Origin: an uncultured bacterium
GTDB taxonomy: Bacteria; Verrucomicrobiota; Kiritimatiellia; CAIKKV01; CAITUY01
NCBI GenBank assembly: GCA_903958395.1
Contig: CAJBSZ010000384.1
Span: 3,156 to 67,155 of the forward strand
Reading direction: 5' to 3'
Length of the DNA stretch: 64,000 nt
This document shows positions 1,602 through 64,000 of this stretch, piece after piece. Each line of letters starts with the position of its first letter. The stretch's first letter is position 1. A program made the translations under genes and the position numbers. The notes beneath the pieces are model-generated. The model searched no databases and was not told where the DNA came from. It saw only the letters and a list, made by a program, of their open reading frames with translations.

Positions 1602-1603
1602 GG

Positions 1604-4675: not shown

Positions 4676-4768
4676 CAGAATCCTCTTCCTTCAAATGGGT
4701 GACAATCAAACATGAACTTCCAAATCTAGCAGATGAGGTTGAATTTGACGATACTTTATGAAGGGGGC

Positions 4769-4805
4769 AAAAAAAATACGGAAACCAGTCTTTCGACTGA
4801 TTTCC
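4769..4805 (-). terminator. rho-independent terminator downstream of the RRM-protein gene
   Basis: On the minus strand, hairpin GGAAATCAGTC-GAAA-GACTGGTTTCC (10/11 bp) followed by TATTTTTTTT. Confidence 0.6.
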
Positions 4806-4831
4806 GCATCAGGAATTAACCTTGTGGAGGA

Positions 4832-5245
4832 CTACCGACGTCCACCGCCGCCGCCGCCGAAACCGCCACGGCTACCGCCGCCACGATCTCCGCCGGGGCC
4901 GCCGCGTCCGCCGCGATCACCGCCACGTCCGCCGCCGCCGAAGCCGCCACGGTCGCCGCCGCCGAAGCCGCCACCACCACCACCGCCAACACGCGGGGCC
5001 GGAGGACGCGCTTCGTTCACGGTCATGGCGCGACCTTCCAGGTCCTGGCCGTTCGTGGCCGCAATGGCCGCTGCTGCTTCCGCATCGGTGCTCATCTCGA
5101 CAAAGCCGAAGCCCTTGCCGCGACCGGTCATCCGGTCAATGATCACGTCCGCCGATTCCACCTTGCCGTACGCGGAAAACAACTGTGAAAGTGTTTCGCT
5201 CGTAACGCCGTAGCTCAGGTTGCCAACATACAGTTTCTTACCCAT
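4832..5245 (-). CDS. RNA-binding protein with one RRM domain and a glycine/arginine-rich (RGG) tail
   Basis: RNP1-like KGFGFVEM and RNP2-like LYVGNL motifs; C-terminal GGGFGGGDRGG repeats; GAGGAG RBS upstream. The overlapping + strand proline-rich ORF 4758..5213 is its mirror artefact. Confidence 0.85.
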   Translation of the reverse strand: MGKKLYVGNLSYGVTSETLSQLFSAYGKVESADVIIDRMTGRGKGFGFVEMSTDAEAAAAIAATNGQDLEGRAMTVNEARPPAPRVGGGGGGGFGGGDRGGFGGGGRGGDRGGRGGPGGDRGGGSRGGFGGGGGGRR

Positions 5246-5521
5246 CTTCGATCTCCTCTTTTTGAGGACTAACGGATCCGTTCTTTTGCTTTCTGGCTCC
5301 TATGGAAAGGGGTTCAACTCGAACCCATTTAAGGAGGATGATCGAAATATGTCGGGCTCCCTGATTGCTTTCGCAACACTGGCCGGCTCCTTCGACTACC
5401 AACTTACGCGGCTAGGATACTGTTTTCCTTGCGAAAAGTGCAATACTTATGATGTTTGAGTCACGCGAAGAATTCTCACCCCTGAATCGATTCAGATGGC
5501 GTTGTCTGGGTTCAGGCGGCC

Positions 5522-6661
5522 TTATCTTTTTATAGATTTCGTGATCTGATACCCGCGCCGGTGCAGGATTTCGGCATTTCCGAAAAGGGATTGCATCAAT
5601 TCGGCATTACGGGTGGCGTTTTTGGCCACAATATAGGCGCGGCCCCCGGGTTTCAGGGTTTGGAAGGCGGTGCGGATAAAGAAGTCTGATATTTTATCGT
5701 GTGAATAGTAGGGGGGATTGCCGACAAACAGGGTGAACCGGTTTTCATCGGAAAGTCCTTCGTCGCTTAAGATCACCCTAAACCGGGTCAACCCGTTGGC
5801 TTTGCAATTTTCCTCTGTTATGGCCGTGGCCCGGGAATGGGAGTCGATGAAGACCACTTCGGCGCTTGGCTGGTTGACCGCCAGCGAGATCCCGACGCTT
5901 CCGCACCCGCAGCCCAGGTCGAGGATGATGTCGCCCGGTAGTGTGGCGGCGGTCTCGGCGAGCGCCTGGGCACCTTCATCCACGCGGCGATGTGCAAACA
6001 CGCCCGGTCGAGTCGCCAGGAGTGCCCCCCGGCCATTCGGGATGGTCATGGTGAATTCAGCCCGGTAGTCGCGGGTTTTCTTCAAGTCCTGTTTCTTCCG
6101 GCTGATGAGCAGGGTGGAGGTCTGGTCGCTTCCGCGAAGGGAGCAGGTTCCAAAGGATTTTTTCATGTGTTCCATGAGCCAGGGAATTTTCTCTTCGGCC
6201 GTCACCAGACAGGCCCCGCCCCTTTTCAAGGCCTGGTGGGCTTGTTGAAGTTGATCCAGGATCAATTCGTCGGACAGGGATCCTTTCGAAATCTGGAGAC
6301 AGACCGCATCGAAGTGATCCCGTTCAGGGATGTCCGGCTCGCAGCGGGCGGTGACCGAGGTGAAGGGATTCCGGGCGAGGTTCCGTTCAATGGCGTGATG
6401 ATGATACAGATCCAGCGAGGAGGCGATCACCTTGAGTTCCGGGTGGACGCGGCTGGCGATCATGCCCAGGACCCCCGTTCGATTCCCGAGGACCAGTAGG
6501 GAGGCGGGCGCGGGGGAAAGCGGCAGCGCCTTGATGAGATGGGTCTCGGTGGGATGCAGTCCCGAGCGCGAAATAACATCGTACCGGCTTTCGAGAAAGG
6601 TCTCTGAAATCGAGGCGAAGGCATCCAATGGGTCGGTTATCCTGATAATCATGGCGCGCAT
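5522..6661 (-). CDS. class I SAM-dependent rRNA (guanine-N2) methyltransferase, RsmC/RlmG family
   Basis: Two-domain architecture; C-terminal MTase has LDLGCGCGSVG (SAM-binding GxGxG) and a GNPPYY (NPPY) motif. Confidence 0.65.
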   Translation of the reverse strand: MRAMIIRITDPLDAFASISETFLESRYDVISRSGLHPTETHLIKALPLSPAPASLLVLGNRTGVLGMIASRVHPELKVIASSLDLYHHHAIERNLARNPFTSVTARCEPDIPERDHFDAVCLQISKGSLSDELILDQLQQAHQALKRGGACLVTAEEKIPWLMEHMKKSFGTCSLRGSDQTSTLLISRKKQDLKKTRDYRAEFTMTIPNGRGALLATRPGVFAHRRVDEGAQALAETAATLPGDIILDLGCGCGSVGISLAVNQPSAEVVFIDSHSRATAITEENCKANGLTRFRVILSDEGLSDENRFTLFVGNPPYYSHDKISDFFIRTAFQTLKPGGRAYIVAKNATRNAELMQSLFGNAEILHRRGYQITKSIKR

Positions 6662-6724
6662 TATAATGCGGCCTCCGGTGGTGCGCTATTGTTTTCCGCC
6701 ACGCCTGTGTGTAGTCTAGCCGAC

Positions 6725-7486
6725 ATGACGAACGAACCAGAAATTGTCTATGGACGCCAGCCGGTCTGCGAGTTGCTCAAGGCGGGCCGGCGTGAGGTGA
6801 AGCGATTGTTGATGGCGAACAATGTGCGGCAGTCGGCTGCCGCCATTGTGCAATTCCTTAAATTAGCCGAAAAACGAGGACTGGCAGTCCAACCCGTGGC
6901 TCTATTTGAATTAGATCGGATGTGCCGGAGCGGCAATCACCAGGGAATCGCCGCCGTGGTGGCGGATTATCCCTATGCGGAGTTGTCCGACATTCTGGAG
7001 GGCGCGTTTGAGCGCAAATTGCCGCCTCTGCTTCTATTGGTGGATCATGTCCAGGATCCGCAAAACCTGGGCTCCATGCTCCGGTCGGCGGATGCCGCCG
7101 GCGTTAATGGGGTTGTGATTCCGCGTCATCGTGCCGCCTCGGTGACCCCGGCGGTGGTGCGAGCCTCGGCCGGGGCGGCCGAGCATGTTCAGGTGGCGCA
7201 GGTCGTAAACCTGCATCAGGCCATGCTGGCGCTGAAGGAGCAGGGGGTCCGGCTGGTCGGTCTGGAGGGTTCCAGCACCGCCACCCCTTACGAGGAGGCT
7301 GATTTGACCGGGCCCATCGGCGTGGTGGTGGGGAGCGAGGAGGAAGGGCTTGGCAAGCTGATCCGGGAGACCTGCGATGCCGTAATCCGGCTGCCCATGC
7401 GAGGGCGGGTGGGCTCGTTAAACGCCGCCGTCGCCGCCGCGATCGCCTTGTTTGAAGTCCGGCGGTGCCAGGTGGCCGGGGCCTGA
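6725..7486 (+). CDS. rlmB: 23S rRNA (guanosine-2'-O)-methyltransferase RlmB (SpoU/TrmH family)
   Basis: IVYGRQPVCELL N-terminal substrate-binding domain plus a SpoU MTase core (GSEEEGL, LPMRGRVGSLNAAVAAAIALFE); start moved to the second in-frame Met. Confidence 0.8.
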   Translation: MTNEPEIVYGRQPVCELLKAGRREVKRLLMANNVRQSAAAIVQFLKLAEKRGLAVQPVALFELDRMCRSGNHQGIAAVVADYPYAELSDILEGAFERKLPPLLLLVDHVQDPQNLGSMLRSADAAGVNGVVIPRHRAASVTPAVVRASAGAAEHVQVAQVVNLHQAMLALKEQGVRLVGLEGSSTATPYEEADLTGPIGVVVGSEEEGLGKLIRETCDAVIRLPMRGRVGSLNAAVAAAIALFEVRRCQVAGA

Positions 7487-7580
7487 GACCGGCCTGCGGT
7501 TGGCGCGAAGTCTTTTGTTGAGGAGGAGCCCGCGTGGTGGCATACTGCCCACCCATTTCAACCCGGAATAAGGATGTTTC

Positions 7581-8441
7581 ATGAATAAAATATTGGACAG
7601 GACACAGTTGTCTGACGACGTTTATATGATGCGCCTGGACGCCCCGTATATTGCCCGTGAGCGGTTGCCCGGACAGTTCGTCATTCTCCAGCTCGACAAT
7701 GAGTTCGGCGAGCGGATACCCCTGACCATCGCGGATGCCGATCCCCTTGAAGGCTCCATTACCATCATCTTTCAGGCGGTCGGAAAAACGACTCATAATC
7801 TGGCTGACAAGCAGGTCGGCGAATCCGTCCAGAGCGTTCTCGGCCCGCTCGGTCAGCCAACCCACATTGAGAAATTCGGGACGGTGGTTTGTGTCGGAGG
7901 CGGTATCGGGGTGGCCCCCCTGCATCCGATTGTCAAGGGGATGAAGGCCGCCGGGAACCGGATCATTGTGATCGTGGGTGCCCGGACGAAGGGCCTGGTG
8001 ATCATGGAGGAGCAGATGCGCGCCCTGGCCGATGAGTTCATCATTTGCACCGATGATGGATCCCTGGGGCGCAAGGCGCTGGTAACGGAACCCCTGAAGG
8101 AGGTTTGCGGCCGGATCCCGAAGCCCGACATGGTGGTGGCGATCGGGCCGCCAATCATGATGAAATTCTGTGCGGAGGCGACTCGTCCTTTTGGAGTCCA
8201 CACCCTGGTGTCGTTGAATACCATTATGATTGACGGTACCGGGATGTGCGGCGGTTGCCGGGTGACGGTCGGTGGGCAGACGAAATTTGTCTGTGTGGAT
8301 GGCCCTGAGTTCGATGGGCACCAGGTGGACTTTGACAACATGATGCAGCGTTTGAAGGCCTACCGGAAACATGAGGATCACGCCCATAAACAATGTCATT
8401 TGGATGCTGAACTTCGCTCCAAGGAGAGTATTACCCCATGA
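7581..8441 (+). CDS. nfnA: NfnA/SudB-like ferredoxin-NADP+ reductase small subunit (FAD-binding plus C-terminal 2Fe-2S)
   Basis: PyrK-like fold motifs (RLPGQF, GGGIGVAPL) and C-terminal GMCGGCRV cysteine cluster; translationally coupled to the next gene. Confidence 0.75.
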   Translation: MNKILDRTQLSDDVYMMRLDAPYIARERLPGQFVILQLDNEFGERIPLTIADADPLEGSITIIFQAVGKTTHNLADKQVGESVQSVLGPLGQPTHIEKFGTVVCVGGGIGVAPLHPIVKGMKAAGNRIIVIVGARTKGLVIMEEQMRALADEFIICTDDGSLGRKALVTEPLKEVCGRIPKPDMVVAIGPPIMMKFCAEATRPFGVHTLVSLNTIMIDGTGMCGGCRVTVGGQTKFVCVDGPEFDGHQVDFDNMMQRLKAYRKHEDHAHKQCHLDAELRSKESITP

Positions 8442-9925
8442 GCCACTCATCCCCTGAAGCCCTGGCGGCACAAGCCTGTCAGGAACTGGACGATTTGTTG
8501 AAGCGGACGACGCCCCTGACACCCAAGGAGCGTATTGCCATCACCGCCCAGGAGATGCCCACCCAGGATCCCGCCATCCGGCGGCGGAATGTCCAGGAAG
8601 TGGCTTTGGGGTACACGCCCGAGCAGGCGCGATTGGAGTCCCTGCGCTGTCTGCAATGCCGGAATGCCCCCTGTGTGCAGGGATGTCCGGTCCGGATTGA
8701 CATTCCCGGATTTCTAAAGGCGGCGGCGGACGGGGATTTTCAAGGTGCCTCCACGATTATCAGGAAGAACAGCCTGTTGCCGGCAGTATGCGGCCGGGTG
8801 TGTCCGCAGGAAACCCAGTGCCAGGAGCATTGTACTGTGGGGAAGGCCCTGAAAAGCGTGGATAAGGCGGTTTCCATCGGGCGGGTCGAGCGGTTTGTCG
8901 CTGACCTTGAGCGGGAGACGGGTGGAGCCGTGGCGCCGACGATCAAGCCGGCGACCGGAAAAAAGGTGGCGGTGATCGGTACCGGGCCGGCCAGCATTAC
9001 GGTGGCGGCGGATGTGCGGCGCGAGGGACATCAGGTGGTGATGTTTGAAGCCTTCCACAAGCCCGGAGGCGTCCTGGTGTACGGGATTCCTGAATTCCGG
9101 CTGCCCAAGGCGATTGTGCAGAAGGAAATTGATGCGTTGACAGGAATGGGTGTGGAGCTCAAAACAAACTTTGTCATCGGGCGCACTCGAAAGTTGAAGG
9201 CCCTGATCGAGGAGGATGGGTTTGACGCCGTGTTCATCGGAACCGGGGCCGGGCTGCCCAAGTTCATGAATATCGAGGGGGAAAACCTGGTCGGTGTTTT
9301 TTCAGCCAATGAGTACCTGACCCGGGCGAACCTGATGAAGGCCTATGACTTTGATCGGTCCGACACCCCGATTTCGCGGCCCGGTCGGGTGGCGGTGCTG
9401 GGCGGCGGCAATGTGGCCATGGACGCGGCGCGGACCGCGGTGCGCCTCGGGGCGGAGGAAGTGCATATCATCTACCGGCGTACGGAAGTTGAAATGCCGG
9501 CCCGAATCGAGGAACTTGCGCATGCCAAGGAGGAGGGGGTGATCTTCCACCTGCTTGAAAACGCCAAGCGCCTGATTGGGGATAAGGACGGCTGCGTCAC
9601 GGCGCTGGAATGTCTTCGGTACGAACTGGGCGAGCCGGATGCCTCCGGCAGGCGGCGGCCGGTGGAAGTCAAGGGAAGCGAATTTATCCGCGAGATCGAT
9701 GCGGTGATCGTGGCAATCGGAAATGATTCCAATCCGCTGATTCCCCGCACGACCGACGGGCTGCAGACGACTAAGTGGGGCAACATCATTGTGGATGAAA
9801 CCGGGAAGACGTCGATTGACCGGGTCTATGCCGGCGGGGATATTGTCCTGGGCGCGGCCACGGTTATCCTAGCGATGGGCGAGGGACGTCGCGCGGCGGC
9901 TTCCATTAATGAGCGCTTAAAATAA
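8438..9925 (+). CDS. nfnB: NfnB/GltD-like NADPH-dependent oxidoreductase (glutamate synthase small-subunit homolog)
   Basis: N-terminal CLQCRNAPC...CPVRIDIPGF and CGRVCPQETQCQEHC iron-sulfur motifs, then two Rossmann dinucleotide sites (KVAVIGTGPA, RVAVLGGGNVAMD). Confidence 0.75.
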   Translation: MSHSSPEALAAQACQELDDLLKRTTPLTPKERIAITAQEMPTQDPAIRRRNVQEVALGYTPEQARLESLRCLQCRNAPCVQGCPVRIDIPGFLKAAADGDFQGASTIIRKNSLLPAVCGRVCPQETQCQEHCTVGKALKSVDKAVSIGRVERFVADLERETGGAVAPTIKPATGKKVAVIGTGPASITVAADVRREGHQVVMFEAFHKPGGVLVYGIPEFRLPKAIVQKEIDALTGMGVELKTNFVIGRTRKLKALIEEDGFDAVFIGTGAGLPKFMNIEGENLVGVFSANEYLTRANLMKAYDFDRSDTPISRPGRVAVLGGGNVAMDAARTAVRLGAEEVHIIYRRTEVEMPARIEELAHAKEEGVIFHLLENAKRLIGDKDGCVTALECLRYELGEPDASGRRRPVEVKGSEFIREIDAVIVAIGNDSNPLIPRTTDGLQTTKWGNIIVDETGKTSIDRVYAGGDIVLGAATVILAMGEGRRAAASINERLK

Positions 9926-53767: not shown

Positions 53768-53783
53768 CGTTAATTTCTTAACG
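53768..53783 (+). promoter_or_regulatory. candidate Rex operator upstream of the first hydrogenase operon
   Basis: Perfect 6-4-6 palindrome CGTTAAtttcTTAACG, 20 nt upstream of the hydC1 ATG; resembles the TTGTTAA-N4-TTAACAA Rex box class. Confidence 0.5.
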
Positions 53784-53803: not shown

Positions 53804-54352
53804 ATGGCAGAATCTAAACATCTGTGTGACTGTCAACAGCAGGTTGATGAAGTCAAATGTCTTAAACGCCTGGATGTCGTCATCAAGGAATATCGGGAAA
53901 AGCCCGGGGCATTGATTCCTGTGCTCCAGATCGCCCAGGGGCTGTTCGGCTATCTTCCGGAAGTGGCGCTCAAGCGGATCAGTCTCGGCCTGGACAAATC
54001 CTACAGTGAAGTGGCCGGGGTGGTCGGGTTCTACTCGTTTTTTTCCACCGTTCCACGGGGCCGCAATCTGATCCGGGTCTGCCTGGGGACGGCGTGCTAT
54101 GTTCGTGGGGGCAAACAGGTGCTTGAGGCCATCAAGAAGCATCTGGGCATTGATGTGGGGCAGACCACGCCCGACAAACTTTTTTCGCTCGAGGTGGCCC
54201 GGTGTTTCGGCGCCTGTGGACTGGCCCCCGCCATCACCGTGAATGACGATGTCCATCAGCGGGTCAAGTCCGCGAAGGTGCATGAGATCATTAATTCCTA
54301 CAGGAAAGTTCCAAAAGGCAAGGCGGCCAGGCAGAAGAGGGTGAAGTCATGA
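53804..54352 (+). CDS. hydC: NuoE-like [2Fe-2S] thioredoxin-fold subunit (HydC/HndA type)
   Basis: IPVLQIAQ...CLGTACYVRGG...CFGACGLAP NuoE cysteine pattern; GAGGAG RBS. Confidence 0.85.
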   Translation: MAESKHLCDCQQQVDEVKCLKRLDVVIKEYREKPGALIPVLQIAQGLFGYLPEVALKRISLGLDKSYSEVAGVVGFYSFFSTVPRGRNLIRVCLGTACYVRGGKQVLEAIKKHLGIDVGQTTPDKLFSLEVARCFGACGLAPAITVNDDVHQRVKSAKVHEIINSYRKVPKGKAARQKRVKS

Positions 54353-57300
54353 CAGCACACAGGAAGATCGCAACCCCGGCCGCCCTGAAGGCTTTGGCGG
54401 CTGAATACAAAATCAAAGTTGAAGGCCGGATCCAGACCGGCGGTAAGGCACCCTCCGGAAAGATCAAGCATCATGTCCTCGTCTGTACCGGCGGCGGATG
54501 CATTGCATCGGGTGCGCTCGATGTCAAGGCCGCGCTGGAACAGGAAATCAAGCGGCTTGGCCTGGCTTCCCAGGTGAAGGTGTTTGCTACCGGGTGCCTG
54601 GGTCCCTGTGCGGTTGGTCCCGTGGTCGTGGTCTATCCCGAAGGGACATTCTACGAGAATCTCACGCCGAAGCGCGCGGTCCGGATTGCCCGGGAACACC
54701 TGAAGAAAGGGAAGATTGTGGAGGAGTTTGTCCACAAGAAGGAGCCCTTCCAAACCCCCGTGCCGGCCATGAAGGACATCGAGTTCCTGAACAAGCAGAC
54801 CAAGATCGTCCTGCGCAATTGCGGCATCATCGATCCCCTCAGTATTGAGGAGTATATCGGGCGCGACGGGTATCTGGCGTTGGCCAAAGTCCTGACCACG
54901 ATGAAGCCCGACGAGGTCATTGAGACCATTAAACAATCCGGCCTGCGCGGGCGGGGCGGGGCGGGGTTCCCAACATGGATGAAGTGGAGCCTGACCCGTA
55001 AGGCGGCGGGCGGTGAGAAGTACATGCTCTGCAACGCCGATGAGGGCGATCCCGGAGCGTTCATGGATCGTAGCGTGCTGGAGGGCGACCCCCACAGCGT
55101 GATCGAGGCCATGGTTATCGGCGCCTATGCGGTGGGCGCGTCAAAGGGGTTTGTGTATTGCCGTGCGGAATATCCGTTGGCGGTGGAACGGTTGACCAAA
55201 GCCATTGAAAGCGCCCGGGAGTCCGGCTTTCTGGGGAACGCCATTTTCGGATCGGATTTTAATTTTGACCTTGAAATCCGAATGGGAGCAGGCGCTTTTG
55301 TCTGCGGCGAGGAAACCGCGCTCATGACCTCCATCGAGGGGCAGCGCGGCGAGCCGCGCCCGCGTCCCCCCTTCCCGGCGAACAAGGGACTCTGGGGCAA
55401 GCCCAGCGTTTTAAATAATGTGGAAACCTATGCCTCCATCCCTGCCATTATCAATCGGGGGGCGGACTGGTTTGCCTCGTACGGAACCGGGAAGAGCAAG
55501 GGGACCAAGGTGTTCGCGCTGGCTGGTGCCGTGACCATGACGGGGCTGGTGGAAGTGCCGGTCGGAACCCCGCTCGGCGAGATCATCTATGATATCGGGG
55601 GCGGCATCCCCAACGGGAAGAAGTTCAAGGCGGCCCAGATTGGCGGGCCCTCAGGCGGGTGTATTCCGCGCCAGCACCTTAATGTGCCGGTGGACTATGA
55701 ATCCCTGGCGGAGCTCGGCGCGATCATGGGATCCGGCGGCTTGATCGTCATGGATGAGGACACCTGCATGGTGGATGTGGCCCGTTATTTCCTGGATTTT
55801 GTTCAGGATGAGTCGTGTGGAAAGTGCGTGCCCTGCCGCGTGGGCACCAAGCGAATGCTCGAGATTCTTGACCGGATTTGCGAGGGCCATGGCGAGATGG
55901 AGGATATCGATCGCCTGATCTCGCTGGGACACCAGATCCGCGACACGGCTCTGTGCGGACTCGGTCAGACGGCCGCCAATCCGGTTCTTTCGACGATCCG
56001 GCATTTCCGGAACGAGTACGAGGCGCATATCCGGCAGAAGCATTGCGAAGCCGGGATTTGCCCCGGGCTGGTTCGGGCTCCCTGCCAGAGCGCCTGTCCC
56101 GCCCATGTGGATGTTCCGGGATTTGTATCGCTGGTTGGCGAGAAACGGTATTCCGAAGCGTTAAAACTGCATCGTGAGCGCAATCCGTTTGCCTCGGTTT
56201 GTGCCCGGGTCTGTTTCCATACCTGTGAGGATAAGTGCCGCCGGGCCTCGCTCGATGATTCCGTTTCGATCCGGGGCATCAAGCGCTACATGGTGGATCA
56301 GGAGCTCAAGCCCCTGATTCCCGCCGTCCGGGAGAACAAGGAAAATGCGAAGCGCAAGGTGGCGATCATCGGTGCCGGTCCGGCAGGCTTGTCCTGCGCC
56401 TATTTTCTGGCCCGGCTGGGGTATCAGCCGAAGGTCTTCGAGGCGGAACCGCGGCCCGGGGGCATGCTGGTGCAGACCATTCCGGCCTACCGGTTACCGC
56501 GTGAGTTGCTGGCCCGGGAAATCCGGATGATTGAGCGGATGGGGGTGGAGATCAAGACGGGTAAGAAACTCGGTCGCGACTTTACCCTGGAGTCCCTCAA
56601 GAATCAGGGCTATGACGCCGTCTTTGTGGGCGTTGGTGCACCGGATGGAGTTCGTGTGGAGATGCCGGGCAGTGACGCCCGGGGCGTGGTTGAATCCATT
56701 GCCTTCCTGCGCGAATATAATCTCCGGGGGTCCGTCAAGGTGGGCAAGAAGGTGATCGTGGTCGGTGGCGGTAATGCGGCGATTGACGCCGCCCGGACCG
56801 CGCTGCGCCTGGGCGCGGCGGTGACGGTGGTGTACCGGCGCACCGAAGCAGAAATGCCGGCTTATGCCGAGGAAATCGAGCAGGCCCGCCAGGAGGGGGT
56901 TATTCTGCAGACGCTGACTGCGCCCGAGGAAATCATCGTCAAGAACGGTTCCGTGGCTGGGATGCGCTGCCGCCGGATGAAGCTGGGCGAGTTTGACCGG
57001 TCCGGCCGTCGCCGCCCGGAAGGGAGCGGGGAGGAACTGGTGCTGGATGCCGACCAGGTCATTTTGGCCATCGGCCAGACACTGGATGCCAAAAAGGTGA
57101 TTGGCGATCTTCCTGTTGAATTGATCGGGAAGAGCCAGATCATGGCGGAGGCCCTGACGGGAAAAACGAGCGTTCCCTGGCTCTTTGCCGGTGGCGATGC
57201 CGCCGTGGGCCCGTCGTCCGTCGTGGAGGCCGTGGCGTCCGGCGAGCGCGCGGCGGTCGGGATGGATGCGTACCTGACGGGTGAATCGCACGCCTTCTGG

Positions 57301-57522
57301 CGGGTCGAGGCGGTCGTGGAGACCGGGTTTGATCCCGATGCCGATCCCCGGATGGATCCCCGTGGCACGCTGGTGCTGTTGCCGGCGGAACGGCGGACAA
57401 ATAACTTTGATGAAGTGGAGCAATCCTGGTCGGAGACTGAGGCCGTGCGACAGGCCCGCCGGTGTCTCCGGTGTGATTACAGGGCGAAGGAAGAAAGCGA
57501 GAGTGTGCCATGCCGAAAGTGA
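54349..57522 (+). CDS. fusion protein: N-terminal [2Fe-2S] thioredoxin-like domain + NuoF-like FMN/NADH-binding core + C-terminal GltD/NfnB-like NADPH:FAD oxidoreductase module
   Basis: Residues 1-120 HndB-like 2Fe-2S (VCTGGGC...CLGPC); 130-560 NuoF (GLRGRGGAGFPT FMN site, ESCGKCVPCRVG 4Fe-4S); 560-1057 GltD (CEAGICPG...CQSACPAHVD, CARVCFHTCEDKC, VAIIGAGPAGLSCAYF, VIVVGGGNAAIDAA). Continuous 1057-aa ORF. Confidence 0.85.
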   Translation: MTAHRKIATPAALKALAAEYKIKVEGRIQTGGKAPSGKIKHHVLVCTGGGCIASGALDVKAALEQEIKRLGLASQVKVFATGCLGPCAVGPVVVVYPEGTFYENLTPKRAVRIAREHLKKGKIVEEFVHKKEPFQTPVPAMKDIEFLNKQTKIVLRNCGIIDPLSIEEYIGRDGYLALAKVLTTMKPDEVIETIKQSGLRGRGGAGFPTWMKWSLTRKAAGGEKYMLCNADEGDPGAFMDRSVLEGDPHSVIEAMVIGAYAVGASKGFVYCRAEYPLAVERLTKAIESARESGFLGNAIFGSDFNFDLEIRMGAGAFVCGEETALMTSIEGQRGEPRPRPPFPANKGLWGKPSVLNNVETYASIPAIINRGADWFASYGTGKSKGTKVFALAGAVTMTGLVEVPVGTPLGEIIYDIGGGIPNGKKFKAAQIGGPSGGCIPRQHLNVPVDYESLAELGAIMGSGGLIVMDEDTCMVDVARYFLDFVQDESCGKCVPCRVGTKRMLEILDRICEGHGEMEDIDRLISLGHQIRDTALCGLGQTAANPVLSTIRHFRNEYEAHIRQKHCEAGICPGLVRAPCQSACPAHVDVPGFVSLVGEKRYSEALKLHRERNPFASVCARVCFHTCEDKCRRASLDDSVSIRGIKRYMVDQELKPLIPAVRENKENAKRKVAIIGAGPAGLSCAYFLARLGYQPKVFEAEPRPGGMLVQTIPAYRLPRELLAREIRMIERMGVEIKTGKKLGRDFTLESLKNQGYDAVFVGVGAPDGVRVEMPGSDARGVVESIAFLREYNLRGSVKVGKKVIVVGGGNAAIDAARTALRLGAAVTVVYRRTEAEMPAYAEEIEQARQEGVILQTLTAPEEIIVKNGSVAGMRCRRMKLGEFDRSGRRRPEGSGEELVLDADQVILAIGQTLDAKKVIGDLPVELIGKSQIMAEALTGKTSVPWLFAGGDAAVGPSSVVEAVASGERAAVGMDAYLTGESHAFWRVEAVVETGFDPDADPRMDPRGTLVLLPAERRTNNFDEVEQSWSETEAVRQARRCLRCDYRAKEESESVPCRK

Positions 57523-59282
57523 CCATAGATGGGACTTCAGTGGAGGTTCCCGAGGGGACCTCGATTCTCAATGCGGCAAAATTGGTTGGGGTCAGGATTC
57601 CGACGTTATGTCACATGGAGGACATTCATGCCATCGGGGCCTGCCGCGTTTGCGTGGTGGAAGTGGAGGGGGCCAAAACCCTCGCCGCCTCTTGTGTCAT
57701 GCCGGTGTTCGACGGAATGAAAATCTCGACCCACACCAAACGGGTTCGTGAGGCGCGGCGGACGGTGGTGGAGTTATTGTTGTCCGAGCATAATGGCGAT
57801 TGCCAGGTGTGTGACCGCAATAACGACTGTGAACTTCAGGCTCTGGCCCATGAACTCGACATCAAGTCGATCCGGTTCGAAGGCGTCAAAACCGCAGCGG
57901 GTTTGGATACGAGCACGCCGGGTGTGGTTCGTGACAACGGCAAGTGCATCAAATGCCGGCGGTGTGTGGCGGTATGCGGGCAGATCCAGTCGGTGGGGGC
58001 ACTTTTCCCGCAGTTCCGTGGCTTTAAAACCGTGATCGGTCCCGCGTTCGGCGCGGATCTCGAGACGGTGGCCTGTGTCCAGTGCGGACAATGCGCGGCG
58101 GTGTGCCCCGTGGGGGCCATTTCCGAAAAAAGCCATATCTCGGAGGTGTGGAAGGCGCTGGACGACAAATCCAAGACCGTGGTGGTTCAGGTGGCACCGG
58201 CGGTGCGCGCTTCATTGGGTGAATGTTTCGGGATGGAACCCGGTACCCTGGTGACGGGCAAAATGGTGGCGGCCTTGCGGCGGCTCGGTTTTTCAGCGGT
58301 GTTCGACACCAATTTCACCGCCGATCTGACCATCATCGAGGAAGGACACGAGCTGTTGCATCGCCTGACGCTGGCGGTCAAGGATAAGAAGCCCGTGGCC
58401 CTGCCTCAGTTCACCAGTTGTTCGCCCGGCTGGATCCGCTACATGGAGTATTTCTATCCCGAAATGCTGCCGTACCTTTCCTCCTGCAAATCGCCCCAGC
58501 AGATGTTTGGCGCGCTGGCGAAGACCTATTGGGCCGGGAAAGTCGGAAAGAAGGCGGAGGACATCGTTGTGGTTTCCGTGATGCCGTGCCATGCCAAGAA
58601 ATCCGAATCCGAGCGGCCGGAGATGAATGACAGCGGTGTGCGGGATGTGGATGTGGCACTGACCACCCGTGAGTTGGGCCGGATGATCAAGGAGGCGGGA
58701 ATCGACTTCACTATGCTTCCGGAAGAGGGAATGGATTCCCTCATGGGAGCCTCAACCGGTGCGGCGGATATTTTCGCCAATAGCGGCGGGGTGATGGAAG
58801 CGGCGCTTCGGACCGTGTGGGAAGTGGTTACCGGACGGGAGTTGCCGTTCCTAAATCTCCATGTGCCGCCCCTGATGGGATTGAGCGGGATCAAACAAGC
58901 GGAAGCGACACTCACCGGTACGCTTCCGGCGTGGTCCTTCCTGGAGGGAGTCACCGTCAAGGTGGCGGTGGCGTCCAGCCTCAGCAATGCCAAGGTGCTG
59001 GTGGACAAGATCAAGACGGGCGAAGTGTCGTATCACTTCGTGGAAATCATGACGTGCCCCGGCGGCTGCATCGGCGGGGGCGGCCAGCCTCGCAAGACGA
59101 CCAACGAAATCCGGCAGAAGCGAATCAACGCCATCTACCGGGAGGATGAGGGGAAGAAACTCCGGAAATCGCACGAGAACCCGGAGGTTCTTAAGATCTA
59201 CGCGGAGTTTCTGGGTGAACCCCTCGGCAAAGTCTCCCATCACCTCCTTCATACGGAATATGGTGCCCGGCAACGGGTCTAA
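57510..59282 (+). CDS. hydA: [FeFe]-hydrogenase catalytic subunit (M3-type, group A bifurcating-like) with atypical L1 motif
   Basis: N-terminal 2Fe-2S plus 2x CxxCxxCxxxCP; H-cluster motifs L2 VMPCHAKKSE and L3 EIMTCPGGCIGGGGQP present; L1 is FTSCSPGW (Ser codon TCG at 58422-58424). Confidence 0.9.
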   Translation: MPKVTIDGTSVEVPEGTSILNAAKLVGVRIPTLCHMEDIHAIGACRVCVVEVEGAKTLAASCVMPVFDGMKISTHTKRVREARRTVVELLLSEHNGDCQVCDRNNDCELQALAHELDIKSIRFEGVKTAAGLDTSTPGVVRDNGKCIKCRRCVAVCGQIQSVGALFPQFRGFKTVIGPAFGADLETVACVQCGQCAAVCPVGAISEKSHISEVWKALDDKSKTVVVQVAPAVRASLGECFGMEPGTLVTGKMVAALRRLGFSAVFDTNFTADLTIIEEGHELLHRLTLAVKDKKPVALPQFTSCSPGWIRYMEYFYPEMLPYLSSCKSPQQMFGALAKTYWAGKVGKKAEDIVVVSVMPCHAKKSESERPEMNDSGVRDVDVALTTRELGRMIKEAGIDFTMLPEEGMDSLMGASTGAADIFANSGGVMEAALRTVWEVVTGRELPFLNLHVPPLMGLSGIKQAEATLTGTLPAWSFLEGVTVKVAVASSLSNAKVLVDKIKTGEVSYHFVEIMTCPGGCIGGGGQPRKTTNEIRQKRINAIYREDEGKKLRKSHENPEVLKIYAEFLGEPLGKVSHHLLHTEYGARQRV

Positions 59283-59296
59283 TCCCATGAGGGTGG

Positions 59297-59337
59297 GGAC
59301 GGCTCTCCGAGCCGTCCGGGGCGGCCTCGGAGAGGCC
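59297..59337 (+). terminator. two GC-rich hairpins after hydA (terminator-like; weak T-tract)
   Basis: GGACGGCTC-tcc-GAGCCGTCC (9 bp) and GGCCTC-gga-GAGGCC (6 bp); no strong U-run follows. Confidence 0.35.
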
Positions 59338-59398
59338 TCCCTGCCCTGAAGGAGGAATCAAAGTCGGATAATTCTCTACATCAGAATTTTGTCTAAAA

Positions 59399-59414
59399 TG
59401 TTAAAACTTTAACG
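59399..59414 (+). promoter_or_regulatory. candidate Rex operator upstream of rex (autoregulation)
   Basis: TGTTAAaactTTAACG, a 6-4-6 inverted repeat with one mismatch to the palindrome, 64 nt upstream of the rex ATG. Confidence 0.5.
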
Positions 59415-59477
59415 TTAAACATTTGACAGAGCTTGGGGCGATGGTGTAAACGTCTTTCCTTTCAAAAAAGGCCCCTT

Positions 59478-60125
59478 ATGAACACTGAAGACATGACCCG
59501 CTTAAAAATTCCGGTGGCGGTGGTTCGGCGGATGCCGAAATACCTGACCCAGGCCCAATACTTGCGTCAGGAAGGGGTGCAGTGGGTATCGTCGTTGTCC
59601 CTGGCCGAGGCGTTGGGCCTGACAAGTTCCACCGTGCGGCAGGATCTTTCACACATTGATTTTCAAGGGGTTTCCAAGCGCGGGTATTCAACCGTGGGCC
59701 TTGAGGCTGCTCTCGCCCGGACCCTCGGGGTTGACCATGACATCACCTGCATCCTGGTCGGTGCCGGAAACCTGGGCCGGGCCCTTGCCCTGCATGAGGG
59801 ATTCGGGCGGCAGGGCTTCAAGATTGTTGGCGTGTTTGACAGTTCTCCCGCCGTTGTGGGGAAAAAGGTCGGGCATTTTATTGTCCGGCCCATGGCGGAT
59901 CTGGTCGCCGTGGTGGCGCAGCAGAAAGTGGAGATCGGCATCCTGTCCGTTCCGCACGAGGCGGCACAGGCCGTGGCCGACCAGTTGATTTTGTCGCGAG
60001 TGCGCGGGTTGTTGAACCTGACCACCGCGCATCTCCGGACGCCGGCGGCGGTACCGGTGGTGGATACCCGCGTTTTGTCGAGTTTAAGGGAATTGGCCTA
60101 TTCGGTGAGGAGCCGGCAGGTATAG
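59478..60125 (+). CDS. rex: redox-sensing transcriptional repressor Rex
   Basis: N-terminal winged helix (RRMPKYL...LGLTSSTVRQDLSHI) and C-terminal Rossmann NADH-binding domain (ILVGAGNLGRAL). Confidence 0.85.
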   Translation: MNTEDMTRLKIPVAVVRRMPKYLTQAQYLRQEGVQWVSSLSLAEALGLTSSTVRQDLSHIDFQGVSKRGYSTVGLEAALARTLGVDHDITCILVGAGNLGRALALHEGFGRQGFKIVGVFDSSPAVVGKKVGHFIVRPMADLVAVVAQQKVEIGILSVPHEAAQAVADQLILSRVRGLLNLTTAHLRTPAAVPVVDTRVLSSLRELAYSVRSRQV

Positions 60126-60175: not shown

Positions 60176-62095
60176 ATGATGAGTAATCCAATGGAGCAGT
60201 TGCTTGAACGGCGCGAAAATGCCGAAAAACGACTTCGCCGGGAGAAATTTAACGCCAAGGTTCGTATCACGGTGGGATCCGCCACCTGTGAGAATGCGGC
60301 CGGGGCGCCTGACGTTTTCAAGAAGATTGAGGAATTGATCAGGAAGCACGGCTTGAAGGATGTTACCCTGAGCCGCGTGGGTTGTACCGGCCGGTGCGAC
60401 ATGGAGCCGGTGGTGACGGTGTTCAGCCAGCGAACCACTCCTGTGAAATACATCGCCATGACGCCCGACAAGGTGGAGAAGGTGTTCGACTCGCATGTCC
60501 TGAAGGCGATTCCGCTCAAGGCTCTGGCGATGCCCGTCGGGGTCGTTCAGGATACGGATTTCACCGAGGAGAAGCTCTGGGCGGATGCGAGACTCACGGA
60601 CCGGTTTTCGTCCGTTTTCGGTGATGTTCACTTTTTTGGCAAGCAGATGCGCATGACGCTGCGCAACTGCGGCGTGATTGACCCCGAGGACATGGATGAA
60701 TATCTCATGGTTCGCGGCTACCAGGCGGCGGTGAAGGTCCTCACCGAGATGACGCCCAATGATGTGGTCAATACCGTCATTAAGTCGGGCCTGCGTGGTC
60801 GCGGCGGCGGCGGGTTTTCAACGGGGGTTAAATGGAATTTCGCCCTCGCCCAGAAGAACGAGGAGAAGTACATCGTCTGCAATGCAGACGAGGGGGATCC
60901 CGGTGCGTTCATGGATCGCAGCACCATCGAGGGTGATCCCCACACCGTGATTGAGGGCATGATCATCGGAGGCTATGCGATTGGCGCCCGGGTGGGTTAT
61001 GTGTACATTCGGGCCGAGTATCCCCTCGCCATCAAGCGGCTGGAGCTCGCTATTGCGGCGGCCCGCCAGGCGGGGTTCCTCGGAACCGGAATTTTTGGAA
61101 CGAACTGGGATTTTGACATCGAGATCCGGCTCGGCGCAGGCGCATTTGTGTGCGGCGAGGAAACCGCCCTGATCCGGTCGATCGAAGGGGAACGCGGCAT
61201 GCCGCGGCCCCGTCCGCCGTATCCCGCCGCGTCGGGGTTGTGGGGCAAGCCCACGGTGATCAACAATGTTGAAACCTTTGCCAACATCCCCGTGGTGATT
61301 CTGGATGGGCCCGAATGGTTTTCGTCCATCGGTACGGCCAAGAGCAAGGGAACCAAGGTCTTCGCCCTGGCCGGAAAAGTCTGCAACACAGGCCTGGTTG
61401 AAGTGCCCATGGGCACAACGCTGCGGGATGTGGTGTACGGAGTCGGCGGCGGCATTCGCGACGGAAAGAAATTCAAGGCGGTCCAGACGGGCGGCCCCGC
61501 GGGCGGCTGCCTGCCCGAATCGTACCTCGACACCCCGGTGGACTATGAGTCGTTGACGGCGGCCGGCTCGATGATGGGCAGCGGTGGCATGATCGTGATC
61601 GACGAGGATTCCTGCATGGTGGACGTGGCCCGGTTCTTCCTGGATTTCACCCAGGACGAGTCCTGCGGAAAATGTACCCCGTGCCGGGAGGGGACCAAGC
61701 GCATGCTGGAAATCCTGCAGCGCATCACCTCGGGGCGTGGGGTTGAAGGCGATATCGAGAAGTTGCTGCGTCTGGGCGACACGATCAAGCGAACGTCGTT
61801 GTGCGGCCTGGGTCAGGCATCGCCGAATCCGGTGATCAGCACGATCAAGCATTTCCGTGACGAATATGAGGCGCATATCCGCGAGAAGCGGTGCCCGGCG
61901 GGTGTCTGCGCGGGGCTCCTCACCTTTTCGATCATTGCGGAGAAGTGCATCGGGTGCGGGGCCTGCAAGCGCAAGTGTCCCGTTCCCTGTATCGCGGGGA
62001 AGCCGAAGGAAGTTCATGAAATTGATCAGGCCCGCTGTATCAAGTGCGGGCAGTGTTTTGAGGCATGCAAGTTTGACGCAGTGAAGAGGAGCTAG
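60176..62095 (+). CDS. hydB: bifurcating [FeFe]-hydrogenase NuoF-like subunit HydB (2Fe-2S Trx-like + FMN/NADH core + C-terminal 2x[4Fe-4S])
   Basis: GLRGRGGGGFSTGVKW FMN motif, ESCGKCTPCREG, C-terminal CIGCGACKRKCP and CIKCGQCFEAC ferredoxin motifs. Confidence 0.9.
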   Translation: MMSNPMEQLLERRENAEKRLRREKFNAKVRITVGSATCENAAGAPDVFKKIEELIRKHGLKDVTLSRVGCTGRCDMEPVVTVFSQRTTPVKYIAMTPDKVEKVFDSHVLKAIPLKALAMPVGVVQDTDFTEEKLWADARLTDRFSSVFGDVHFFGKQMRMTLRNCGVIDPEDMDEYLMVRGYQAAVKVLTEMTPNDVVNTVIKSGLRGRGGGGFSTGVKWNFALAQKNEEKYIVCNADEGDPGAFMDRSTIEGDPHTVIEGMIIGGYAIGARVGYVYIRAEYPLAIKRLELAIAAARQAGFLGTGIFGTNWDFDIEIRLGAGAFVCGEETALIRSIEGERGMPRPRPPYPAASGLWGKPTVINNVETFANIPVVILDGPEWFSSIGTAKSKGTKVFALAGKVCNTGLVEVPMGTTLRDVVYGVGGGIRDGKKFKAVQTGGPAGGCLPESYLDTPVDYESLTAAGSMMGSGGMIVIDEDSCMVDVARFFLDFTQDESCGKCTPCREGTKRMLEILQRITSGRGVEGDIEKLLRLGDTIKRTSLCGLGQASPNPVISTIKHFRDEYEAHIREKRCPAGVCAGLLTFSIIAEKCIGCGACKRKCPVPCIAGKPKEVHEIDQARCIKCGQCFEACKFDAVKRS

Positions 62096-62097
62096 TC

Positions 62098-63858
62098 ATG
62101 ACAACAGAAAAAAAAGTAACGCTGTGGATTGACGGCGTCAAGGTGACGGTGCCTGAAAAGACCACCATTCTCCAGGCGGCCGACTCAATCAATATCAATG
62201 TTCCCAGCCTGTGCTATCACCCCGACCTGAGCGTGATTGGCGCCTGCCGGGTTTGCGTGGTGGAGGTCGACGGGCAACGCAATCCGGTGGCTTCCTGCTC
62301 GTATCCGGTGGCCGAGGGAATGAAGGTCAAGACCTCCTCGCCCCTGCTGCGGCGCCTCCGTCGTGATGTCGTTGAGCTGATCCTGGACAATCATCCCCAG
62401 GATTGCCAGTCGTGCGTGCGGAACGGAACCTGCGAGTTGCAGAAGCTGGCCTACGATCTGGGGGTCCGGGAACGCCTGTTCGAGGGCGAACGCAAGCGCT
62501 TTCCCGTGGACACTTCGTCCCCGGTGCACCGCAATCCCGAGAAGTGCATCTTGTGCGGCCGCTGTGTGCGGGTTTGTGATGAGGTGCAGGGCGTTCATAA
62601 TCTGAGCGTCCAGCACCGCGGTTTCCATAATGTCGTGGCTCCGGCGCATGACTGCAAGATGATTGATTCCGTTTGTATTCATTGCGGGCAGTGCGTCAAC
62701 GTCTGCCCCACAGCCGCCTTCACGGAGCAGGATGCCACGGAGTCGGTGTTCGAGGCCTTGTCGAACCCGGATCTTCATGTCGTGGTTCACACCGCGCCGG
62801 CGATCCGGGCTACGATCGGCGAGGGGTTCGGGTTCCGGCCGGGCACGCCGGTGACTGGAAAGCTGGTCACGGCACTGCGTATGGCCGGCTTTCACAAGGT
62901 GTTCGACACGAATTTCGGAGCCGACCTCACGATCATCGAGGAGTCCACGGAGTTTCTGAGCCGGGTCCAGAAAAAAGAACGGCTCCCGTTGATCACATCC
63001 TGTTCGCCCGGGTGGGTGAATTTCATGGAGCGCTTTTATCCGGAGCTGATTCCCCTGACCTCTACCTGCAAGTCGCCGATGAGCATGCTATCGACGCTTC
63101 TGAAAACCTACTACGCCCAGCAGATGGGAGTGGATCCCGAGAAAATCTTTGTGGTGGCGGTGATGCCCTGTACGGCCAAGAAGTTCGAGGCGAAACGCTC
63201 CGAGCACATGGCGCCGTGGGGCAAACCCTATACGGATGCGGTGCTGACCACCCGGGAACTGGTCTGGATGCTGAAGTGTCTCGGTGTGGATTTTCATAAT
63301 CTTGAGGACAGTGCCTTTGACTCCCCGCTCGGAGTCTCCTCGGGTGCGGCGGATATCTTCGGCGCGACAGGCGGCGTCATGGAGGCGGCTTTGCGTACGG
63401 CCTACGAGAAGATTACCGGGCAGGAGCTGGAAGCCCTTGATTTCGAGACGGTTCGCGGGGTGGAGGGCGTCAAGGAGACGTCGATCCAGATCAATGGCCT
63501 GACCATCAATATCGGCGTGGCCAATGGTCTCCAGAACGCCAAGAACCTGCTGGACCGCGTCGCCAGCGGCGAGAAGCAATACCACATCATCGAGATTATG
63601 GCGTGTCCGGGCGGTTGCGTGGCCGGTGGCGGGCAACCCTATCCGCCCCGCGGTATGCATGTGCTGGACCCGGAGTTGGGTCGATTGCGGGCCAAGGCGC
63701 TCTACTCGATTGACGGCAGCAAGTCGCTGCGGAAATCGCATGAGAATCCCGCCATCGAACTGTTGTATGAGAATTTCCTGGGCGCGCCGAACAGTCATCT
63801 GTGCCATGAGTTGCTGCATACCCATTATGAACCCAAGACCCCGCGAGGTGTGAAATGA
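62098..63858 (+). CDS. hydA: [FeFe]-hydrogenase catalytic subunit, second paralog, same atypical L1
   Basis: Same architecture as the first hydA; L1 ITSCSPGW (Ser TCG at 63004-63006), L2 VMPCTAKKFE, L3 EIMACPGGCVAGGGQP. Confidence 0.9.
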   Translation: MTTEKKVTLWIDGVKVTVPEKTTILQAADSININVPSLCYHPDLSVIGACRVCVVEVDGQRNPVASCSYPVAEGMKVKTSSPLLRRLRRDVVELILDNHPQDCQSCVRNGTCELQKLAYDLGVRERLFEGERKRFPVDTSSPVHRNPEKCILCGRCVRVCDEVQGVHNLSVQHRGFHNVVAPAHDCKMIDSVCIHCGQCVNVCPTAAFTEQDATESVFEALSNPDLHVVVHTAPAIRATIGEGFGFRPGTPVTGKLVTALRMAGFHKVFDTNFGADLTIIEESTEFLSRVQKKERLPLITSCSPGWVNFMERFYPELIPLTSTCKSPMSMLSTLLKTYYAQQMGVDPEKIFVVAVMPCTAKKFEAKRSEHMAPWGKPYTDAVLTTRELVWMLKCLGVDFHNLEDSAFDSPLGVSSGAADIFGATGGVMEAALRTAYEKITGQELEALDFETVRGVEGVKETSIQINGLTINIGVANGLQNAKNLLDRVASGEKQYHIIEIMACPGGCVAGGGQPYPPRGMHVLDPELGRLRAKALYSIDGSKSLRKSHENPAIELLYENFLGAPNSHLCHELLHTHYEPKTPRGVK

Positions 63859-64000
63859 AGAACGAACTGCTTCAAAAGGAAATAGACAAGGCGATGGCTC
63901 TCCTGCCCGAGCCGGTGGTGCGCTACATTCAGGACTGTGCGAAGAAAAAAAACCCGAACAGCCATCTGATTTCGGTGCTTCACAAGGTTCAGGAACACTT
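63855..64000 (+). CDS. hydC: NuoE-like subunit HydC, 5' fragment (runs off window end)
   Basis: ATGA overlap with the hydA stop; translation MKNELLQKEIDKAMALLPEPVVRYIQDCAKKKNPNSHLISVLHKVQEH matches the NuoE N-terminus. Confidence 0.7.
   Translation, partial: MKNELLQKEIDKAMALLPEPVVRYIQDCAKKKNPNSHLISVLHKVQEH

Follow-up and report, generated by a model that had tools for sequence, protein, structure and literature searches.

Bfu enzymes exchange electrons with nicotinamide adenine dinucleotide, NAD(H), at a flavin mononucleotide (FMN), and pass low-potential electrons from the C1 cluster through the B3/B4 clusters to ferredoxin (PMC11829005, PMC9499530, PMC10482914); their minimal bifurcation site has been defined as B1-FMN-C1 (PMC11829005), and the B3/B4 domain is a conserved feature of every bifurcating [FeFe] hydrogenase characterised (PMC9499530). 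In the Stn transhydrogenase a HydC-type [2Fe-2S] cluster relays electrons to the B subunit's C-terminal domain (PMC10482914). Zheng & Huang (2024, mSystems, PMC11406978) named another BfuB architecture 'sub-type I BfuABC' from sequence, stated that no enzyme of the kind had been reported before, floated its flavin adenine dinucleotide (FAD) as a second bifurcation centre, and recorded homologues without BfuD in Verrucomicrobiota and Kiritimatiellota. Here we describe an operon of this kind in a 64,000-nucleotide stretch of DNA from an uncultured Kiritimatiellia bacterium (contig CAJBSZ010000384.1; hereafter the window), in which the B subunit of an [FeFe] hydrogenase is fused to a module for NADP(H), the phosphorylated nucleotide, and FAD. 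The architecture is not new, having been on sequence record since 2024, and is common; the locus is a member of a known, uncharacterised kind. From its predicted make-up we give a nearly even chance to the enzyme being an H2:NAD(H)/NADP(H) hydrogenase in which NADP(H) replaces ferredoxin and coupling occurs at B1-FMN-C1.

The operon comprises three open reading frames, all on the plus strand and placed as in the initial annotation. The first, hydC/bfuC (53804..54352), encodes a NuoE-like protein of 182 amino acids carrying the C1 [2Fe-2S] cluster (Pfam 2Fe-2S_thioredx, E 2e-47); the second, hydB/bfuB (54349..57522), encodes the fusion, a BfuB core plus NADPH/FAD module of 1057 amino acids; and the third, hydA/bfuA (57510..59282), encodes a catalytic [FeFe] hydrogenase of the M3 type with 590 amino acids. 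The hydC stop and the fusion start overlap as ATGA, and the end of the fusion overlaps the hydA start by 13 nucleotides. With these overlapping stop and start codons the three genes form one operon, which fits translational coupling.

The fusion is conserved, and a homologue search recovered full-length relatives across many phyla. More than 120 protein clusters, whose source names are just 'NuoF' or 'hydrogenase', match it at 67-97% identity over its full length (1012-1060 amino acids), and a genome scan found at least 599 related stretches in species-representative genomes. We kept 80 loci from these relatives and extracted 53 uninterrupted fusions at 45-96% identity, to which the conservation counts below refer. 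Their hosts belong to Verrucomicrobiota/Kiritimatiellia, Lentisphaerae, Planctomycetota, Bacteroidota, Spirochaetota and Actinomycetota, and further to Acidobacteriota, Atribacterota, Bacillota, Chloroflexota and Desulfobacterota, with Pelotomaculum terephthalicicum JT as a cultured example from Bacillota. About 50 of the loci share the gene order hydC-fusion-hydA. The nearest, from an uncultured Verrucomicrobiota metagenome-assembled genome (locus L001), has a 96% identical fusion and the same layout of two hyd operons as the window, the second of which is canonical and is described below; the bacterium behind the window is therefore probably closely related to it.

The N-terminal half of the fusion resembles the B subunit of bifurcating enzymes domain by domain. 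Pfam placed along the chain 2Fe-2S_thioredx (residues 40-115), Complex1_51K (194-365, E 1e-45), SLBB (389-437), NADH_4Fe-4S (476-560, E 1e-35), Fer4_20 (563-653, E 1e-21) and Pyr_redox_2 (670-965, E 1e-29), and NCBIfam returned nuoF_fam at residues 162-561 (509 bits) and GltD-like families at about 530-1050. The domain borders put the junction at about codon 560-573, close to the codon ~560 proposed at the outset, and the last two Pfam domains lie in the C-terminal part. The thioredoxin-like [2Fe-2S] domain (B5; 54466..54693) has C46, C51, C83 and C87, present in 47-53 of the 53 fusions. The FMN/NADH-binding domain (54928..55443) carries the motifs GRGGAGFPT, CNADEGDPGAfMDRS and GAFVCGEETAL, at least 90% conserved in the family, and the four-helix bundle (55774..56028) holds the B1 [4Fe-4S] ligands C490, C493, C496 and C536, which are invariant (53/53). 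Just behind it lies the B2/Zn 'hinge' motif (56026..56061), assigned by motif, with H560, C566 and C571 plus C473 further upstream; these four candidate Zn ligands are also invariant in the 53 fusions, the T. maritima Zn site is formed by three Cys plus one His (PMC9499530), and the same EAH...C-x4-C hinge motif is found in the canonical HydB2 of the window.

Comparison with solved chains gave the same picture. Over residues 40-577 the best match was the A. mobile NiFe-HydB (7t2r_B, 801 bits), followed by A. woodii HydB (773), StnB (666), NfnB (663 and 659), T. kivui HydB (650) and T. maritima HydB (601 bits), so that 7t2r_B, 7q4v_B, 8oh5_B, 9n5u_B, 8a6t_B and 7p5h_B are all BfuB chains matched by this half, whereas the non-bifurcating FdsB and NuoF reach only 360-420 bits. 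Judged by these alignments, the N-terminal half best fits the B subunits of proven bifurcating Bfu enzymes, and the fusion keeps what is by homology the entire bifurcating BfuB/HydB core. In the AlphaFold2 model the predicted local distance difference test score (pLDDT) fell below 50 over residues 380-465 (window 55486-55743, the SLBB region) despite high sequence conservation, which probably reflects a shallow alignment (40 sequences, all at 67% identity or more) and not disorder.

From residue 573 onward the ferredoxin-type 2x[4Fe-4S] tail is swapped for a module of the Stn/NfnABC type (56065..57477) with two [4Fe-4S] clusters and Rossmann folds for FAD and NADPH. Pfam found no Fer4-type dicluster domain after residue 571, whereas canonical HydB2 (60176-62095) has its 2x[4Fe-4S] tail at the equivalent position, which bears out the initial description of that tail as replaced. 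Residues 573-1046 matched best the C. saccharolyticus NfnA (9bov_A residues 98-567, E 6e-117), then S. ovata StnC (8oh5_C residues 98-569, E 9e-108) and T. sibiricus NfnA (E 2e-107). Further off came NfnB/NfnL (E about 1e-85 to 3e-85) and DPD (about 1e-56), and GltD was the most distant solved relative (about 1e-52 to 7e-52). A Foldseek search with the AlphaFold2 model superposed the module at a root-mean-square deviation of 3.8-3.9 A over about 475 columns, with 40-44% identity in the structural alignment to the Stn/NfnABC NADPH module; it found the two halves of the fusion separately and no solved chain spanning both. Pfam, NCBIfam and solved relatives thus agree with the proposed GltD/NfnB-like module, and with NADH/FMN and NADPH/FAD sites in one chain. 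The description as a bifurcating hydrogenase crossed with an Nfn/Stn-type transhydrogenase also holds, the C-terminal half being closest to the Stn/NfnABC module.

We assigned the cluster ligands of the module by the DPD and Stn ligand schemes. The predicted ligands are C579, C630, C1039 and C1042 for the distal [4Fe-4S] cluster and C583, C622, C626 and K645 for the FAD-proximal one, all of them invariant in the 53 fusions. The FAD motif GxGxxG and the NADPH motif GGGN.AiDaARtA.Rlga.V...YRRt..eMPA are likewise conserved across the family. K645 aligns with K170 of 9bov_A and of StnC (8oh5_C); in StnC this lysine is strictly conserved and the FAD is non-bifurcating, and bifurcating NfnB has a Glu there (PMC10482914). 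By analogy, this argues that the FAD of the module is non-bifurcating.

The module also appears to be built for insertion. Its C-terminal returning strand (57391..57477; ..NF.EVE....A..eA.RCLRCD) gives two Cys to the distal cluster and includes a helix modelled by AlphaFold2 at residues 1029-1042 (pLDDT about 80). For these last 30 residues the counterpart in NfnA and StnC is the end of the insert (E 4e-4 and 1e-3); in classical NfnB, DPD and GltD it is, weakly, the N-terminus (E 0.04-6.6). Because the strand with the first two cysteines comes last, as a C-terminal RCLxC, the module is an 'insertable' form of the GltD fold. From C571, the last Cys of the Zn motif, to C579, the first of the distal cluster, there are 8 residues, against 13 from the Zn motif to the first B3/B4 Cys in HydB2, and the module therefore topologically occupies the place of B3/B4, where the ferredoxin arm begins. 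In terms of predicted domains, it replaces B3/B4 right after the retained Zn hinge.

A genuine HydC and a catalytic HydA stand beside the fusion, as had been proposed: solved relatives and the NCBIfam score agree on this. Among solved chains HydC1 is best matched by C subunits from Bfu enzymes that bifurcate (7t2r_C, 8a6t_C, 9n5u_C, 7q4v_C and 8oh5_A), and HydA1 by its bifurcating namesakes in T. kivui and A. woodii. HydA1 scores 870 bits with NCBIfam FeFe_hydrog_A6 (cut-off 765) and contains the Pfam domains Fer2_4, NADH-G_4Fe-4S_3, two Fer4, Fe_hyd_lg_C and Fe_hyd_SSU, which include all those of an N-terminal chain of [2Fe-2S], His-[4Fe-4S] and 2x[4Fe-4S] clusters. Its H-cluster motifs TSCSPGW (also in A. 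woodii), MPCHAKK and EIMTCPGGCIGGGGQP are present, and the first two align together with TCPGGCIGGGGQP with HydA1 of A. woodii and T. kivui. The operon is best explained as encoding a Bfu-type (HydABC, group A3) [FeFe] hydrogenase: the complex has a B subunit with FMN/NADH site and B1 and a C subunit with C1, forming the 'flavobicluster' B1-FMN-C1; unlike canonical members, it lacks the B3/B4 ferredoxin arm.

From the observed architecture, predicted ligands, conservation and synteny we infer the substrates, coupling and direction. HydA would make or split H2, and electrons would run along its FeS chain to B1 and the FMN of HydB, where NAD(H) would bind; C1 of HydC would pass electrons to the distal cluster of the module, from which they would exit as NADPH. 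The FAD would act as a two-electron/one-electron converter only, bifurcation or confurcation taking place at B1-FMN-C1, and the overall reaction would be 2 H2 + NAD+ + NADP+ ⇌ NADH + NADPH + 2 H+. A ferredoxin-independent bifurcating/confurcating hydrogenase of this kind, splitting the electrons of H2 between NAD+ and NADP+ or merging those of NADH and NADPH, is our tentative proposal, short of an even chance. We counted in favour of coupling that HydA1 and HydC1 are nearest to proven bifurcating subunits. For a fermenter regulated by Rex, one would expect NADH and NADPH to be disposed of together as H2 at low H2 pressure.

Energetics are compatible with such a reaction. With physiological potentials (E') of -280 mV for NADH, -380 mV for NADPH and -500 mV for ferredoxin (PMC9304861, Table 1), the calculated equilibrium H2 pressure is about 145 Pa for NADH plus NADPH, about 3 Pa for NADH alone and about 15 kPa for NADH plus ferredoxin. 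H2 at 10-100 Pa (-296 to -325 mV) by calculation falls between the NADH and NADPH couples, and therefore suits the role of mid-potential substrate of a bifurcating enzyme.

Several points weigh against the proposed NADP(H)-coupled reaction. NAD+ and NADP+ have the same standard potential, NADP(H) being 'low-potential' only through in vivo ratios. By analogy with NfnL, ferredoxin might dock on the distal cluster, and the predicted NADPH specificity comes from homology and motif. The AlphaFold2 monomer has a predicted template modelling score (pTM) of 0.54, at which inter-domain geometry is unreliable, and the palindrome pattern read below as Rex operators was picked after the sites had been seen. 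Finally, we found no biochemical study of a NuoF-GltD hydrogenase in the literature searched, with most subscription journals outside it.

The strongest alternative, which we consider rather unlikely, is an uncoupled dual-nucleotide hydrogenase, in which the FMN-bound NADH and the FAD-bound NADPH would exchange electrons with the H-cluster independently of one another. There is precedent for loss of coupling: HydB proteins that lack B3/B4 do not bifurcate in S. wolfei or Syntrophus aciditrophicus (PMC11406978, PMC9499530), the HydABC of Syntrophomonas wolfei being NADH-dependent and ferredoxin-independent. The Stn module, moreover, is a simple two-electron/one-electron converter (PMC10482914), and H2 reduction of both nucleotides is exergonic under standard conditions (PMC9304861). 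The fusion, however, keeps the other marks of a bifurcating BfuB, namely B5, the Zn hinge and a BfuC-type HydC, and its N-terminal half scores 600-800 bits against bifurcating BfuB as opposed to 360-420 against NuoF/FdsB; an uncoupled enzyme would also be left with the roughly 3 Pa of H2 that NADH alone sustains by our calculation.

It is unlikely that ferredoxin is still a substrate, either with the FAD as a second, NfnSL-like bifurcation site, as raised by Zheng & Huang (PMC11406978), or with the distal cluster as docking point. The complex would then link H2, NAD, NADP and ferredoxin, combining hydrogenase and Nfn in one enzyme. In NfnB/NfnL, to which the module is homologous, ferredoxin is reduced by the distal cluster, and a study of archaeal HydB (Cell 2024, PMC11216029) puts the low-potential acceptor at its GltA-like domain. 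The FAD as a second bifurcation centre is made less likely by the invariant Stn-type Lys645, the proximal ligand in 53 of 53 fusions where bifurcating NfnB has Glu, and the operon is without an NfnS-like [2Fe-2S]/FAD partner for the high-potential electron.

That the module does not use NADPH at all, and serves NADH or another partner or is a redox-inert structural remnant, is very improbable. Its nucleotide specificity is indeed read from sequence, and remnants do exist in the Bfu family, such as the inactive FdhF-like domain of StnC (PMC10482914). Yet the closest solved homologues bind NADPH, StnC having been solved with it bound (PMC10482914), and conservation of both Rossmann motifs, the YRR and all cluster ligands over 45-97% identity and many phyla speaks for a module that works. 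That assembly or a frameshift has artificially joined a nuoF-like and a gltD-like gene, for which we found no support, is ruled out by the uninterrupted open reading frame, by more than 120 full-length clusters from independent assemblies, and by 53 full-length fusions from many phyla that keep the junction position to the residue.

We suggest that the consequences would be considerable if the NADP(H)-coupled reaction is real. To our knowledge every characterised Bfu enzyme has ferredoxin as its low-potential partner; ferredoxin would then be dispensable for Bfu-type bifurcation, the gap of ~100 mV between the NAD and NADP pools in vivo standing in for it. This would be a new reaction class, widespread in bacteria of the Planctomycetota-Verrucomicrobiota-Chlamydiota (PVC) group, Bacteroidota, Spirochaetota, Actinomycetota and syntrophs; anaerobes would gain a direct route from H2 to NADPH and a second redox valve at about 100 Pa H2, and for many uncultured fermenters and syntrophs the predicted H2 threshold would shift. 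As a large family is annotated merely as 'NuoF', reconstructions that score a standard NADH/ferredoxin hydrogenase may be wrong. The fusion is also a natural experiment on the disputed Bfu mechanism, with an unchanged core and a different exit arm.

The fusion is found with other partners too. Three clusters of the Atribacteria type (L030, positions 259-8717; L033; L042) continue after the fusion with another hydC, a stripped-down hydB and finally hydA, and so have two BC modules for a single HydA; the extra HydB of L030 has 546 amino acids and neither the N-terminal [2Fe-2S] nor the C-terminal ferredoxin domain. In L030, hydC and the fusion are also separated by two genes, one for a HATPase_c protein and one for a small [2Fe-2S] protein, the latter probably the 'BfuD' of Zheng & Huang. 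Among distant members, the fusion is followed not by HydA but by a molybdopterin subunit of the formate-dehydrogenase type (L048, 11004-13724; L054, 11107-14034), an arrangement seen in relatives from Dehalococcoidia and Desulfobacterota; in L044 (11474-12520) this subunit has an in-frame stop at the selenocysteine position, and in L044, L034 and L069 the open reading frame ends ...NVDHCARL-stop, the usual selenocysteine position. In L060 (11156-13457) the fusion precedes a NuoG-like FeS protein of 224 amino acids and a Glu_synthase (GltB FMN) protein of 551 amino acids; this arrangement, which may represent a different Bfu-type complex, occurs in relatives from Desulfobacteraceae and Phycisphaerae. 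Given these formate-dehydrogenase-type and other partners, the fused B subunit serves as a building block of Bfu enzymes in general and is not specific to hydrogenases.

Shorter relatives of about 580-660 amino acids (P0134, P0145, P0156, P0181 and P0204) match the C-terminal 580 residues of the fusion without its FMN domain, and consist of NADH_4Fe-4S (B1), Fer4_20 and Pyr_redox_2 only, with P0204 showing Fer4_20 and Pyr_redox_2 together with a 4Fe-4S dicluster and an MCP signalling domain; truncated gene calls may account for some of the five. A neighbour-joining tree of N-terminal halves mixed fusions with canonical Firmicutes HydB and did not decide whether the fusion had a single origin; the sequences labelled 'canonical' from L070-L072 are fusions cut by contig ends.

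The second operon (60176..64000, plus strand) begins 894 nucleotides after hydA1, with rex in between, and agrees with the canonical hyd operon initially noted ~1 kb downstream. It runs hydB2 (60176-62095), hydA2 (62098-63858) and hydC2 (63855 onward), the hydC2 start overlapping the hydA2 stop (ATGA); hydC2 is cut by the window end, and L001 has a complete B-A-C version. According to Zheng & Huang this 'BAC' gene order was unreported before their sub-type III (PMC11406978). HydB2 is only 57% identical to the fusion core and distant from it in the neighbour-joining tree; the two operons are parallel systems and not recent duplicates. A canonical operon also adjoins the fusion operon in L001, L015, L043 and L061, in keeping with the earlier view of a parallel system and not a replacement.

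Between the two operons, rex (59433..60125, plus strand) encodes an NADH/NAD+-sensing repressor (NCBIfam Rex, 191 bits, cut-off 126; Pfam Put_DNA-bind_N and CoA_binding), whose start is more likely the ATG at 59478 than the listed TTG at 59433. A candidate Rex operator, GTTAATTTCTTAAC, lies at 53769..53782, 22-35 nucleotides before the hydC start codon, and candidates before rex lie at 59400..59427, where GTTAAAACTTTAAC is abutted by GTTAAACATTTGAC (one mismatch). The pattern GTTAA-N4-TTAAC, a post hoc choice, occurs in exactly two copies in the 64 kb as against none in 100 shuffles. L001 keeps both sites, the one before hydC in an unchanged position and the one upstream of rex with the same half-sites and a changed spacer, and the 1.08 Mb of fetched loci contain no copy besides those of the window and their L001 counterparts. 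The classical Rex box TTGTGAA-N4-TTCACAA (up to 3 mismatches) gave nothing near the operons and a number of hits at chance level; a TTGTTAA-type core does occur at the operons, and TTGTTAANNNNTTAACAA (TTGTTAA...TTAACAA) is what we take to be the clostridial Rex consensus, the literature confirming only use of the string, in seven papers. Among the other loci a few (L003, L031 and L036) have good Rex-like boxes upstream of hydC, found without a proper statistic. Together, the rex gene and the two rare palindromes suggest NADH-responsive control of the operon by Rex; if the sites are real, induction would come at a high NADH/NAD+ ratio, as for an H2-evolving redox valve.

Just past the hydA1 stop lies a long GC-rich hairpin (59288..59348, plus strand), which folds as RNA at -47.3 kcal/mol (z = -4.3), with none of 200 shuffles folding as stably. 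It has no U-tract and was not called in a terminator scan of the window. We regard it as a probable operon boundary, where it may act in termination or in stabilising the mRNA. Genes upstream at 36.6-53.7 kb (MdoH, an ABC permease, an acetate-type symporter, NhaD, RicT and a PfkB kinase) had no functional tie to the operon.

Several known families that share parts of this architecture were considered as its home. HydDB group A2, 'glutamate synthase-linked (putative)', is defined by a GltD/GltA-domain protein without NuoF immediately downstream of hydA. The operon shares with it a GltD-like NAD(P)H module linked with an [FeFe] hydrogenase, and A2 function too is putative, but hydA1 is followed by rex, and the module forms part of the NuoF fusion encoded upstream of hydA1; we rejected the assignment. 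The initial remark that 'glutamate-synthase-linked' hydrogenases had been proposed and not characterised thus named a different group, while its second half stands, no biochemical characterisation having been found in the literature searched. NfnSL (NfnAB) was rejected on the lack of an NfnS-like gene in or beside the operon and on the proximal ligand, Lys and not Glu; GltD, the glutamate synthase small subunit, was rejected on the lack of a GltB gene in the operon and on the RCLxC, which is C-terminal and not N-terminal. The Bfu family survey by Schut et al. (PMC9304861) contains no wording on GltD, glutamate synthase, NfnB, fused or fusion.

Modules of this type occur elsewhere at ferredoxin-facing positions. 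The HydB of archaeal group F hybrid hydrogenases has a GltA-like module on its ferredoxin-interacting part (Cell 2024, PMC11216029), and ANME-1 HdrA has NfnB-like insertions in its ferredoxin domain (PMC9012536); their catalytic partners differ from ours, being a [NiFe]/[FeFe] hybrid and a heterodisulfide reductase, and we found no biochemical work on either module, including on NADPH, in the literature searched. With canonical HydABC (T. maritima 7P5H, A. woodii 7Q4V/8A5E, T. kivui 8A6T) the operon shares homologous HydA, HydC and HydB residues 40-577 (600-770 bits for HydB), retaining FMN, B1, B5 and the Zn motif, but it has the NADPH/FAD module in place of the B3/B4 domain. With Stn/NfnABC (8OH5, 9BOV, 9N5U), an NADPH:NAD+/ferredoxin transhydrogenase, it shares the BC core, the GltD-like module with a Lys-ligated proximal cluster, and the C-terminal RCLxC strand. 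In Stn, however, the module is inserted in an A subunit without H-cluster and feeds the mid-potential entry path, while BfuB keeps B3/B4; in the fusion it sits at the low-potential exit as part of BfuB, next to an A subunit that is a true hydrogenase. With sub-type I BfuABC, described in purely bioinformatic work (PMC11406978), there is no architectural difference: DPD_II (2x[4Fe-4S]) and an FAD/NAD(P) domain replace B3/B4 in BfuB, which stands beside bfuC and an M3-type bfuA, and BfuD is lacking. To that record the present analysis adds the identification of the module as a Lys-ligated one of the Stn/NfnABC type, the placement of the swap right after the Zn hinge, partners beyond hydrogenase, and likely control by Rex.

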